Of a DNA stretch of 54,967 bases, positions 43,915 through 54,967 are shown in pieces (the first letter of the stretch is position 1; the number at the start of each line of letters is the position of its first letter). Position numbers and translations under genes: made by a program. Source of the DNA: an uncultured Candidatus Saccharibacteria bacterium (lineage in GTDB: Bacteria; Patescibacteriota; Doudnabacteria; UBA920); contig CAZACP010000008.1 in the NCBI GenBank assembly GCA_964483665.1, positions 1-54,967 on the forward strand, read 5' to 3'. The notes beneath the pieces are model-generated. The model was not told the origin of the DNA. It searched no databases and saw only the letters and a list, made by a program, of their open reading frames with translations.

Positions 43915-43970
43915 CCCTACGAAACTTCTTGACCTCAGAAGCTTTAGCGTAGGAGTTTAGTGAAGTAGGG
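43915..43970. repeat. Nested palindromic repeat abutting tRNA-Ile
   Basis: ccctacgaaact...agtgaagtaggg enclosing ctcagaagctttagcgtaggag. Confidence 0.65.
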
Positions 43971-44045
43971 GCGTGTAGCTCAGCTGGTTAGAGCATCTTG
44001 CTTATACCAAGAGGGTCCTAGGTTCGAATCCTAGCACGCCCACCA
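43969..44045 (+). tRNA. tRNA-Ile(UAU)
   Basis: GGGCGTG/CACGCCC acceptor stem; TCTTG-CT TAT AC-CAAGA anticodon arm; GGTTCGAATCC; encoded CCA. Confidence 0.93.
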
Positions 44046-48811: not shown

Positions 48812-48945
48812 TTGACAAGATGAAGTATTTAGCTTATATTAATTAGCTTAATTGAATATTTAAGGACTTCTGGTGCCGGTCAAATACCGACTCGTCTAGC
48901 CCTTTAACAACAACCCCCTAAGCCTAACCGCCAGGGGGTTTTGTA
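48812..48945 (+). promoter_or_regulatory. Promoter and leader with boxA-like motif and terminator-like hairpin
   Basis: TTGACA(48812)-17-TATATT(48835); GCCCTTTAACA 48899-48909; aaccccc...gggggtt-tt. Confidence 0.55.
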
Positions 48946-48966
48946 ATTCAAATAAAAGGAGACAAA

Positions 48967-49233
48967 ATGAAGCGTCTTGATGAATGGTGGCTAAAACGTA
49001 ATTTTGATGATATACACATCTCATTGCAGGCCTGGCAAGAGAGTCCGTATGCCGAAGAGTTTGAAAGACTTGGTTTTTTTGAGCAGATTCAATTGGCCTG
49101 TAGGATCTACGACATGAAGCGTTCGAGGGTGAATGAGATTCGTTTGATTATAGATGGTGTGAGTCGATTGGCGGCCGTAATAGCGGCTGCCATAGGCGCT
49201 CTTATGGCGCTGTCAAAGTTTTTGGGCCGCTAA
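48967..49233 (+). CDS. Small protein with C-terminal TM helix
   Basis: 88 aa; SD AAAGGAG. Confidence 0.7.
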   Translation: MKRLDEWWLKRNFDDIHISLQAWQESPYAEEFERLGFFEQIQLACRIYDMKRSRVNEIRLIIDGVSRLAAVIAAAIGALMALSKFLGR

Positions 49234-49304
49234 TATTTAAGAGTTTGGGGTGATGTGATAAACATTTACCCCTTGCTTTTTTTTAGAAAATCGGTATAAT
49301 ATTA

Positions 49305-49368
49305 AGGCTTTTGAGTGTACGCGCTAAACTAATAATTAACCATTCAAAAGCCTATGTAATTAGCGCGT
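49305..49368 (+). promoter_or_regulatory. H-type pseudoknot upstream of rpsA
   Basis: S1 49305-17/49341-53 (13 bp) and S2 49319-27/49360-68 (9 bp), just after TATAAT at 49295-300. Confidence 0.6.
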
Positions 49369-49469
49369 TTAACAATTAATCAAATTAATATAGGTTTATA
49401 ATCATTTTTTGACAACGATTAGCCGTTGTTTTTTTGTCCTCAACTATTATAAAATTTTTATAGCGGACA

Positions 49470-49496
49470 GTCCGCCGAAGCCTTGGCGAAGGCGGA
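49470..49496. repeat. GTCCGCCGAAGCCTTGGCGAAGGCGGA repeat in the rpsA leader
   Basis: Near-identical to 1240-1266. Confidence 0.85.
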
Positions 49497-49541
49497 TAGA
49501 ATGAATTTCCGATATATTTGGTTTAAAAAAATAATTTTTTT

Positions 49542-50753
49542 ATGTCAGAAGAAACAACAGTAACAGCTCCCTCCCCGCTTGCCCCGGTGACTTACCCGGA
49601 AGGAGCAAAGTCCGCGCAAACTATGCAGGACTTAATTAGCAGCGGGATTGAAATTAAAGTTTTAAAAGCCGGCGACATGGTGGAAGGTACTCTTATTTCG
49701 GCCGGTAAAAACGAAGTCTACGTGGACTTAGAAGGTTATGGTATTGGCGTGGTTAGAGGCCGCGAACTTTATGATGACCAGGCTTCTATAGCCAGTCTTG
49801 TGCCCGGCGACAAGCTTTTAGTAAGCGTGGTTGAAACTGAAAATAAAGAAGGCGTGGTAGAATTGTCTTTGCGCCAGGCAGGCCAGAGCAAAGTTTGGCA
49901 GACCTTGAAAGAAAAAATGGAAAACAAAGAAATCATGCGGGTAAAAATTCTTGAAGCCAACAAAGGCGGCCTTATGATAGAGCTTAACAATGTTATGGGT
50001 TTCTTGCCGGTTTCTCAGCTTTCTATAGAACATTACCCGCGCGTGGAAGACGGCGACAAGAGCAAAATTCTTGGAATTTTGCGCTCCTATGTCGGACAAA
50101 TGTTTGACGTGCAGGTTATAACCGCGGATCCGGAAGAAGAAAAGTTAATTGTGAGCGAAAAAGCGGTTATGGAAAAAGAAATGGAAGGCCGTTTATCCAA
50201 ATTAAAAATCGGTGACATTGTTGAAGGCACGGTTACCGGCGTAGTAGACTTTGGCGCATTCGTAAAATTTGGCGAACTGGAAGGCTTGGTACACATTAGC
50301 GAACTTGCCTGGCAGCGCATAGAAAACCCGAAAGACATTATAAAAGTGGGCGACAGCGTCCGCTGCAAGGTTATTTCTATAGACAAGGGCCGCGTAAGTT
50401 TGTCTATAAAGCAGTTGGCTCAAGATCCCTGGCTGGAAGCGGTTAAAAAGTACCAAATCGGCCAAGTAGTAAAAGGCAAAGTTTCTAAAATTATGCCGTT
50501 TGGCGTATTTGTAGAATTAGACAAGGACATTCAGGGACTTGCGCATATAATGGAATTGTCCCACGAAGCTGTTAAATCCGCTGACGGAATTTTAAAGCCG
50601 GGCGAAGAAAAAGAATTTAAAATAATTTCCATTGAACCGGGCGAACACCGCTTGGGGCTTTCCTTAAAAGCTATGACCGAAGCTCCTAAGAAATCTGACG
50701 ATGTTAAGTCTGAAGAGAAGGTAGAAGAAAAAAGCGAAGTTAAGGCTGAATAA
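49542..50753 (+). CDS. rpsA: 30S ribosomal protein S1 (four S1 domains)
   Basis: NKGGL, GFLPVSQLS, DFGAFV...GLVHISEL, MPFGVFV...GLAHIMEL. Confidence 0.93.
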   Translation: MSEETTVTAPSPLAPVTYPEGAKSAQTMQDLISSGIEIKVLKAGDMVEGTLISAGKNEVYVDLEGYGIGVVRGRELYDDQASIASLVPGDKLLVSVVETENKEGVVELSLRQAGQSKVWQTLKEKMENKEIMRVKILEANKGGLMIELNNVMGFLPVSQLSIEHYPRVEDGDKSKILGILRSYVGQMFDVQVITADPEEEKLIVSEKAVMEKEMEGRLSKLKIGDIVEGTVTGVVDFGAFVKFGELEGLVHISELAWQRIENPKDIIKVGDSVRCKVISIDKGRVSLSIKQLAQDPWLEAVKKYQIGQVVKGKVSKIMPFGVFVELDKDIQGLAHIMELSHEAVKSADGILKPGEEKEFKIISIEPGEHRLGLSLKAMTEAPKKSDDVKSEEKVEEKSEVKAE

Positions 50754-50762
50754 AAAATAAAT

Positions 50763-50800
50763 AAAAAACACGGATATCAATTTAGATAGCCGTGTTTTTT
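50763..50800. terminator. Bidirectional terminator after rpsA
   Basis: aaaaaacacgg...ccgtgtttttt. Confidence 0.8.
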
Positions 50801-50842
50801 ATTTCTGTGTTTATCAGTTTTTATTCTGTGGAGTTCTGTGTC

Positions 50843-51073
50843 TTACATCATGGGTTTAGCAGAGCCCATTTCCCCACTGCACATTTTGCAAGTTTTTTTG
50901 TGAGTAGCGAGTTCGTAAACCGCCGAAAGGCCGACTAAAATATAAACAACTTTGGCTAAGGTGCCGGTGCCTAAGATTTTCATAACTAAGTTAAAATCAA
51001 AAGCGCCTACCAAGCCCCAGTTAAGAGCGCCAACAATAACCAATATCCAAGCTAACATATGTAATGCTTTCAT
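50843..51073 (-). CDS. DUF378-family small membrane protein
   Basis: LVIVGALNWGLVG...VYILVGLSAVY. Confidence 0.88.
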   Translation of the reverse strand: MKALHMLAWILVIVGALNWGLVGAFDFNLVMKILGTGTLAKVVYILVGLSAVYELATHKKTCKMCSGEMGSAKPMM

Positions 51074-52848: not shown

Positions 52849-52935
52849 TGGTGCCCGAGGAGGGAGTCGAACCCTCAATCCCTTGCGGGCGACAGATCTT
52901 AAGTCTGTAGTGTATTCCAGTTCCACCACTCGGGC
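52849..52935 (-). tRNA. tRNA-Leu(UAA)
   Basis: GCCCGAG acceptor; ACAGA-CT TAA GA-TCTGT; long variable arm; CCA. Confidence 0.95.
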
Positions 52936-52982: not shown

Positions 52983-53058
52983 TGGAGGCGCGGGCGGGAA
53001 TCGAACCCGCGCAATCGCGGTTTTGCAGACCGCAGCGTTACCACTTCGCCACCGCGCC
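52983..53058 (-). tRNA. tRNA-Cys(GCA)
   Basis: GGCGCGG acceptor; GCGGT-CT GCA AA-ACCGC; CCA. Confidence 0.95.
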
Positions 53059-54913: not shown

Positions 54914-54967
54914 TGGAGCGGGTAACGGGAATTGAACCCGTTTCTCCACCATGGCAAGGTGGCATAA
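54914..54967 (-). tRNA. tRNA-Gly(GCC), 5' part cut by the window edge
   Basis: CCACC-TT GCC AT-GGTGG; GGTTCAATTCC; TACCCGC-T-CCA. Confidence 0.9.

Follow-up and report, generated by a model that had tools for sequence, protein, structure and literature searches.

A covarying pseudoknot at the start of the rpsA transcript in Doudnabacteria: a new ribosomal-protein leader family and a candidate for autoregulation by bS1

Leaders of ribosomal protein genes act through conditional terminators or by sequestering the ribosome binding site (RBS), and where such a leader stands before a single ribosomal protein gene the encoded protein is conventionally taken as its ligand (PMC7247131). In the case of ribosomal protein S1 (bS1) the only experimentally verified autoregulatory RNA is that of E. 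coli, confined to Gammaproteobacteria (PMC3616713). This operator, the subject of work by Boni et al. in 2000-2001 that is summarised in PMC3616713, consists of hairpins H1-H3 with a conserved GG in loops L1 and L2 and AU-rich single strands in between, and it is through the AU-rich single strands of the rpsA 5' untranslated region (5' UTR) that S1 represses its own translation (PMC3616713). The high-affinity targets of bS1 include pseudoknots, which the protein unfolds, as well as AU-rich single strands (PMC10931766; PMC7038950). Here we describe a pseudoknot-bearing RNA element upstream of rpsA, the gene for bS1, in an uncultured bacterium placed in Doudnabacteria (GenBank assembly GCA_964483665.1, contig CAZACP010000008.1, positions 1 to 54,967 of the forward strand; this whole stretch of 54,967 nucleotides is called the window below). 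Comparison with relatives confirms that the pseudoknot is a genuine conserved RNA structure at the 5' end of the rpsA transcript; that it defines an RNA family is near certain, and that this family is a functional cis-acting leader of rpsA is close to certain. We also favor, with somewhat better than even confidence, a role for the leader (49301-49541) in autoregulation by bS1, a ligand that we infer from the gene downstream.

A preliminary description of this DNA had placed two interlocked stems directly after a TATAAT box, and both statements are borne out. TATAAT is found at 49295-49300, and reading of the sequence together with a repeat finder gives a stem S1 of 13 pairs, one of them G.U, and a stem S2 of 9 perfect pairs, with loops of 1 nt (49318), 13 nt (49328-49340) and 6 nt (49354-49359). 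In what follows the stem is always written 'stem S1', to keep it apart from the protein. The parts of the pseudoknot are as follows.

49305-49317, + strand: 5' arm of stem S1, AGGCTTTTGAGTG (AGGCUUUUGAGUG), pairing with 49341-49353
49319-49327, + strand: 5' arm of stem S2, ACGCGCTAA (ACGCGCUAA), pairing with 49360-49368
49328-49340, + strand: loop L2, 13 nt, with the conserved motif AAUUAAC(C) (49334-49341) at its 3' end
49341-49353, + strand: 3' arm of stem S1, CATTCAAAAGCCT (CAUUCAAAAGCCU)
49360-49368, + strand: 3' arm of stem S2, TTAGCGCGT (UUAGCGCGU)

The succession of arms (49305-17, 49319-27, 49341-53, 49360-68) is that of an H-type pseudoknot, and the same order recurs in 53/53 relatives. 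Calculated energies are -16.3 kcal/mol for the stem S1 hairpin and -10.6 kcal/mol for stem S2 alone. Interlocked helices of at least 12 and at least 9 bp occur in a single case in the 55-kb window, compared with a mean of 0.1 in 40 dinucleotide shuffles, a rarity that taken alone is only suggestive. Folding of single sequences is unremarkable, with z values of -0.9 to -1.8, in part because pseudoknots are beyond the folding program; the nested folder retains stem S1 alone. The observation is solid because the structure is conserved and covaries across more than 50 relatives. Contigs from wastewater metatranscriptomes and metagenomes also contain a strain variant, covering 49019-49470, that has nine substitutions and lacks 3 nt at 49445. 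Its sole change within the pseudoknot, A49349G, converts a U-A pair of stem S1 to U.G and keeps the pair.

Relatives were collected in two ways. The protein-anchored sample comprises 33 Doudnabacteria-type loci fetched via the S1 protein, and the DNA-anchored sample was obtained by scanning metagenome contigs with the pattern CTTATTTG-N24-54-ARATRRG-N10-30-TTAAYWAKTAAY, the protein not being used. The element lies just 5' of rpsA in 29/33 loci of the first sample. The DNA-only scan returned 80 loci, 28 of which have the promoter, stem S2 pairing and the terminator, the remaining 52 being plain AT-rich chance matches, and in all 26 copies with enough downstream sequence rpsA follows directly. 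A covariance model trained on 45 sequences, with E-values that are rough owing to a shortened calibration, finds exactly one strong copy per locus and one copy in the whole window, at 49301-49437 (95.3 bits, E about 6e-12, likewise rough). It finds no copy in four more distant rpsA loci of the Candidate Phyla Radiation (CPR; L026-28 and L031, labels of this form denoting individual loci) and none in 98 other loci, 0.63 Mb in total.

Covariation across the rpsA leaders of relatives, which the preliminary description had named among its checks, is found for both stems in more than 50 of them. On the protein-anchored sample, aligned with MAFFT alone and with no structure fitting, stem S1 is 97.6% paired with double-sided changes at 5/8 pairs, its first pair being G-C in 17 sequences and A-U in 7; on the covariance-model alignment it is 92% paired, and over both alignments compensatory changes are seen at 5-7 pairs. 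The stem S1 variant of the window, CUUUUGAGUG/CAUUCAAAAG as compared with the consensus CUUAUUUGG/CCAAAUAAG, is itself a compensatory set. A MAFFT-only alignment puts stem S2 out of register (51% paired), and this stem was judged both free of any alignment and on the covariance-model alignment. It is formed in 53/53 unique sequences by the alignment-free measure, through many different cores (GCGCU/AGCGC, GUGCC/GGCAC, CGCUC/GAGCG and GUGUUGC/GCAACAC are examples), and is 93% paired on the covariance-model alignment, with compensatory changes at 8/8 pairs. The observed pairing is reached by 0/500 shuffles, slid partners are 32-47% paired, and RNAalifold picks stem S2 and the terminator described below independently.

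Across the family stem S1 has 9-15 bp (median 11) and stem S2 5-13 bp (median 9). In a compact, coaxially stacked fold loop L1, of 1-5 nt (median 3), would have to span stem S2, and loop L3, of 0-10 nt (median 6), stem S1; L2 is unusually long at 7-66 nt (median 23). The A-rich L2 has AUUAAYC at its 3' end throughout, ATTAA being nearly invariant just 5' of the 3' arm of stem S1. L004:2700-2735 and L022:2775-2825 have extra GC-rich hairpins such as GCCCGCCGGAGGCGGGTCCGCCTCTGGCGG within the 5' portion of L2 with AUUAAYC retained, which shows where the pseudoknot tolerates expansion. An insertion of ~190 nt with inverted ends, GGGACTGTTACCAAATG ... CATTTGGCAACAGCCCC, lies within loop L3 of a further locus, between the 3' arms of stems S1 and S2 (L033:2590-2780); the two halves of this leader are matched separately by the covariance model, and the insertion looks like a miniature transposable element that has split it. 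The sister clade L026, L027 and L028, whose rpsA products are 61-65% identical, has no pseudoknot leader. It does have a conserved leader of its own 100-200 nt upstream, with GGCUU right after TATAAT and shared GUCGCAG ... UUCGAAC motifs, which may be a second, different rpsA leader.

The pseudoknot is the first part of a longer arrangement that extends to the start codon of rpsA and that consists, in the window, of the following additional features.

49273-49300, + strand: sigma-70-type promoter, -35 TTGCTT (49273-78), 16-nt spacer, -10 TATAAT (49295-300)
49368-49410, + strand: conserved AU-rich stretch UUUAACAAUUAAUCAA..., ~38 nt, predicted to be single-stranded in the short transcript
49378-49385, + strand: 5' arm of the probable long-range helix, AAUCAAAU, pairing with 49516-23
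49411-49436, + strand: intrinsic terminator from a terminator scan, hairpin GACAACGAUUAGCCGUUGUU (49411-49430) plus U-tract
49436-49499, + strand: spacer module seen by eye in a subset of the family, GUCC (49436-39)/GGAC (49465-68), then UCCGCC (49471-76)/GGCGGA (49491-96)
49516-49523, + strand: 3' arm of the probable long-range helix, AUUUGGUU, 19-26 nt 5' of the AUG
49542-50753, + strand: rpsA, an open reading frame (ORF) for ribosomal protein bS1 (403 aa, four S1 domains)

Transcription is predicted to start at ~49305-49307. In 53/53 sequences the -10 element lies at a fixed distance, 5 nt, 5' of stem S1, and 38 of them have TATAAT; a -35 of the form TTGnnn is found 16-17 nt upstream of it in 52/53, and therefore the transcript begins at the foot of stem S1. 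This fixed promoter, along with linkage to rpsA and to no other gene, upholds the placement of the pseudoknot at the start of the rpsA transcript that had been proposed from the window. A palindrome, TTGTCAATAGACAA, overlaps the -35 of the leader promoter ~30 nt 5' of the -10 in L002, L123, L124, L144 and L157 and may be a transcription-factor operator in that sub-lineage. Downstream of the pseudoknot the AU-rich stretch opens with the best-conserved block of the family, UUUAACAAUUAACCAAUG, which repeats the L2 motif AUUAAYC. By RNAalifold, the interval from stem S2 to the terminator contains no conserved helix. The terminator hairpin and U-run are scored in 52/53 relatives; the remaining one, L019, has them too, with a longer loop, but was missed by the script. 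The terminator stem is 90% paired, with double changes at 5/6 pairs.

Terminator and start codon are separated by 20-224 nt in the family (105-111 nt in the window), and in 15/51 loci at most 45 nt lie between the end of the terminator stem and the ATG, the closest being L123 (20 nt), L012 (26 nt) and L080 (28 nt). In L080, L091 and L145 the U-tract is even continuous with the 3' arm of the long-range helix. Promoter-like sites occur in only 4/51 spacers (for example TTGTCC-16-TATAAT in L001), and the gene upstream is usually on the opposite strand, in divergent orientation. These short gaps, the scarcity of spacer promoters and the divergent upstream gene together lead to the conclusion that rpsA is transcribed from the conserved promoter through both pseudoknot and terminator, and thus that the element is an rpsA 5' leader with an attenuator-like terminator, not a separate gene. 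A short terminated RNA is probably also made. As a sole role, the independent small RNA that the preliminary description had offered as one possibility is unlikely, given that many relatives leave only 20-45 nt between terminator and ATG.

A candidate second promoter in the spacer (TTCACT...TATAGAGAA) was considered and is better read as a covarying helix, GTYCNC/GNGRAC. In its RNA form, GUYCNC/GNGRAC, this helix of the spacer module appears as GTCCTC/GAGGAC, ATTCAC/GAGAAT and GTTCAC/GAGAAC, an apparent covariation noted by eye among the window, L001, L017, L021, L023, L122 and L152; the module is present in these and in L089 and L146, and a hairpin AAUCCGCC...GGCGGAU follows the helix. Between the spacer and rpsA, at 49524-49541, the window contains only A and U (UAAAAAAAUAAUUUUUUU), with no purine run resembling a Shine-Dalgarno (SD) sequence; AAGGA or GGAA precedes the rpsA AUG in many relatives. 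Initiation on E. coli rpsA is SD-independent and S1-dependent. The composition of the window just ahead of the AUG suggests the same mode of initiation for its rpsA.

The segment that follows the pseudoknot is complementary to a site close to the start codon. In consensus form UUAACCAAUG, part of the conserved AU-rich block, would pair in read-through transcripts with CAUUGGUUA, the 3' segment lying 14-25 nt 5' of the AUG. The complementarity has a mean z of -1.6 relative to shuffled partners and reaches p<0.05 in 42% of sequences, as compared with 0% for a control made up of the initial 40 nt of the coding sequence. Changes in one arm are matched in the other in several lineages (L013/L015, L012, L024, L023, L006, L132 and L017), for which arms were read as below.

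L013/L015: TTAATCGTGTG / TACGCGATTAA, 11 bp
L012: AATGCAAA / TTTGCATT, 8 bp
L024: ACAAAATTG / CAATTTTGT, 9 bp
L023: ATTAATG / CATTAAT, 7 bp
L006: TTAATTA / TGATTAA, 7 bp
L132: ACCAATTT / AAATTGGT, 8 bp

We grade this helix as probable, not proven, because about one fifth of the sequences have no convincing pairing. We also considered whether AUUAACC in L2 could pair with the RBS-proximal site and rejected this, since in L012, L023 and L024 that site covaries only with the copy that follows stem S2.

The preliminary description had proposed a different switch, in which 49350-62 would pair with 49383-96 at the expense of both stems. The window does contain such a pairing (-8.8 to -9.7 kcal/mol as a duplex, z -4.1). 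It is not conserved: over 53 relatives the median z is +0.17, and the pairing is missing from the closest relative, L001, whose S1 protein is 96% identical. A switch of this kind is thus not sustained, and the pairing is no part of the mechanism considered below. That description had included neither the terminator, the AU-rich block and the RBS-proximal long-range helix, nor the repeat of AUUAAYC in L2. Pairings of L3 or stem S2 with the 5' arm of the terminator, noted by eye, occur in single lineages only and were set aside. L123:1351-1484 (minus strand of the locus) has a 20-nt spacer and lacks the UUGGUUA site; here AAUCAAU, the sequence of the long-range 5' arm, is the complement of GUUGAUU, made up of the 3' arm and U-tract of the terminator, and could act as an antiterminator in this one lineage.

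How might such a leader work? S1 is taken as the default ligand because rpsA is the only gene downstream, in keeping with the convention for ribosomal protein leaders. Free bS1, with its high affinity for pseudoknots and for AU-rich single strands, would be the species sensed. Once in excess of S1-free 30S subunits it would bind the AU-rich block as well as the pseudoknot, the two AUUAAYC repeats included, and bound S1 would lower rpsA expression mainly at translation initiation, by occupying a standby or enhancer site and by holding the long-range helix. That site would be one that ribosome-bound S1 needs, with repression as for rpsA in E. coli; binding of S1 might in addition promote termination. 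Under S1 shortage RNA polymerase would pass the leaky terminator and S1-containing 30S subunits would open the leader.

Several points weigh against autoregulation by bS1 or against parts of the evidence on which it builds. RNA binding by bS1 is of low sequence specificity, and the fact that UUUAACAAUUAACC and the L2 motif are strongly conserved could indicate a more specific ligand. RNAalifold, applied to the family alignment, finds no conserved antiterminator or competing helix that would make termination conditional, and the long-range helix is weak or absent in ~20% of sequences (L030, L032, L089, L093, L106, L122, L125 and L019). For the window itself we infer co-transcription with rpsA across the spacer of 105-111 nt; metatranscriptome contigs, assembled from runs X6-X9, span 48900-51000 evenly and do not resolve transcript ends. 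As regards the alignments, the cores of the stem S1 arms in the metagenome set are imposed by the search pattern, and the stem S2 columns of the covariance-model alignment (A4) are fitted by the model.

The strong conservation of unpaired nucleotides is also what gives a riboswitch its appeal. The pseudoknot with its conserved loops would then be an aptamer for a small molecule, an ion or an alarmone, with the terminator and the RBS-proximal helix as expression platform; the order of an aptamer-like pseudoknot, an intrinsic terminator and a gene is in line with this, and the very strongly conserved unpaired AUUAAYC of L2 and UUUAACAAUUAACC are more typical of ligand pockets than of low-specificity bS1 sites. 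Yet all copies precede rpsA and no other gene, whereas riboswitch classes normally control metabolic or transport genes, there is no conserved competition between terminator and antiterminator that overlaps the pseudoknot, and no Rfam riboswitch model matches, so that we consider a riboswitch unlikely. Binding of the leader by some other protein, such as a further ribosomal protein (uS2, for instance), an initiation factor or an RNA chaperone, that would couple S1 synthesis to a signal other than free S1 fits the structural and contextual evidence equally well. E. coli S1 and S2 form a complex off the ribosome and co-operate in rpsB autoregulation (PMC10931766), but rpsA alone lies downstream and the encoded protein is the default ligand (PMC7247131), and another protein seems to us quite improbable. 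At the far end of the scale, chance inverted repeats or sites acting at the DNA level, such as protein operators, with no role in RNA, would agree with the weak single-sequence z values and with the ~0.1 comparable pseudoknots per shuffled window; they are in practice refuted by covariation, as compensatory changes preserve G-C, A-U and G.U pairs in three to four helices over more than 50 sequences with G.U tolerated on the + strand only, and we regard this explanation as scarcely credible.

The strong promoter and intrinsic terminator that all members of the family carry would suit an independent small RNA of ~130 nt, running from the promoter to the terminator at 49436 and acting in trans. 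It might do so, for instance, by titrating S1 or through AAUUAACCAAUG, which would pair with the UUGGUUA site of an rpsA mRNA transcribed from a second promoter. The long spacers of many members, the promoter-like site in a few of them and the presence within the short RNA of the stretch complementary to the RBS-proximal site all speak for this; the loci in which the terminator all but abuts the ATG, so that rpsA can be transcribed only through the element, and the usual placement of the upstream gene on the other strand speak against it, and as an account of the element it is quite improbable. The element may nonetheless have a dual role, in cis and in trans. In a two-output device the ~130-nt RNA released at the terminator would be an abundant S1 sponge or trans-acting RNA, whose AAUUAACCAAUG block may pair with the UUGGUUA site of the full-length rpsA mRNA; taken jointly, this device and a small-molecule aptamer are unlikely. 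If the former were true, S1 homeostasis in bacteria of reduced genome would be set by a cis-encoded small RNA from the same promoter, and if the latter, this would be the first class of riboswitch devoted to ribosomal protein S1. Autoregulation by bS1 is the reading that we prefer over these.

The rpsA gene is monocistronic, and its neighbours are on the opposite strand in nearly all relatives. Close relatives of the S1 protein of the window are in metagenome-assembled genomes of Candidatus Doudnabacteria or Patescibacteria, at 75-96% identity. An 88-aa ORF with no Pfam match (48967-49233, + strand) separates the leader promoter from the minus-strand gene upstream; its equivalent is absent from that place in most relatives.

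The element is undescribed as far as Rfam 15 and the searchable literature go, in agreement with the preliminary description: no match to it was found in either, nor any structured regulatory RNA for CPR rpsA. Searches of the window and 18 relatives against Rfam 15, both with gathering thresholds and at E<=10, gave only tRNAs and chance matches, with nothing meaningful in 49200-49560 at E<=10, and a tRNA and tmRNA scan of the leader region likewise gave no match. The Rfam matches of the window are four tRNA genes only, at 43969-44042 (+), 52852-52935 (-), 52986-53058 (-) and 54917-54967 (-), the last cut off by the window end. A hit to cyano-S1 (RF03151; 16.7 bits, E 1.3, gathering score 39.9) falls on the minus strand at 49464-49547, outside the pseudoknot, and was rejected. 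Cyano-S1 is alike in being a candidate leader from comparative genomics, 5' of rpsA in one phylum with a putative ligand; its structure is unrelated to that of the Doudnabacteria element, for which membership in this family is excluded.

Should bS1 prove to be the ligand, the CPR would provide an S1 leader of unrelated structure, available in more than 50 natural variants of sequence, in which both known classes of high-affinity S1 target, the pseudoknot and AU-rich single strands, occur in S1's own mRNA. It would constitute a natural substrate for study of how S1 recognizes and unfolds pseudoknots. It is unusual for a ribosomal protein leader to have both a terminator and a long-range helix near the RBS, and the covariance model could be used as a new RNA family entry for the annotation of Doudnabacteria genomes.

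With the S1 operator of E. coli the element shares a position in the 5' UTR of a monocistronic rpsA, AU-rich single strands, which are the S1 contact sites in E. coli, an SD sequence that is weak or absent (here in the window) and, presumably, a competition between free S1 and S1 on the 30S subunit. The operator, however, has no pseudoknot, terminator or long-range helix, occurs in Gammaproteobacteria only, and bears no similarity to the element in sequence or structure; membership in the E. coli type of S1-interacting RNA is excluded, the alignment containing no three-hairpin arrangement. The leaders of E. coli S15 (rpsO) and S4 (alpha operon) also use a pseudoknot as operator. Those pseudoknots include the RBS and mimic or replace an rRNA site, that of S15 involving the RBS region and trapping the 30S subunit, whereas the Doudnabacteria pseudoknot is 5'-terminal, 170-190 nt from the AUG, and reaches the RBS region only via a separate long-range helix, with the terminator in between. 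An intrinsic terminator between the protein-binding structure and the ribosomal protein gene is a feature in common with the L20 and L10 leaders of Firmicutes (Bacillus), which differ in having a recognisable antiterminator, none being conserved here. The pseudoknots known to be bound by S1 (the preQ1 riboswitch, PMC7038950; list in PMC10931766) are alike in being of H-type with adjoining A/U-rich single strands. The stems of the Doudnabacteria RNA are much longer than theirs, however, and its L2 is large, and those ligands are non-cognate or selected RNAs assayed with E. coli S1, whereas the Doudnabacteria RNA would be a natural cognate target. Sharing no homology with the S15, S4 and L20/L10 leaders, the element represents a new family of RNA, one that falls under the known kind of ribosomal-protein leaders.

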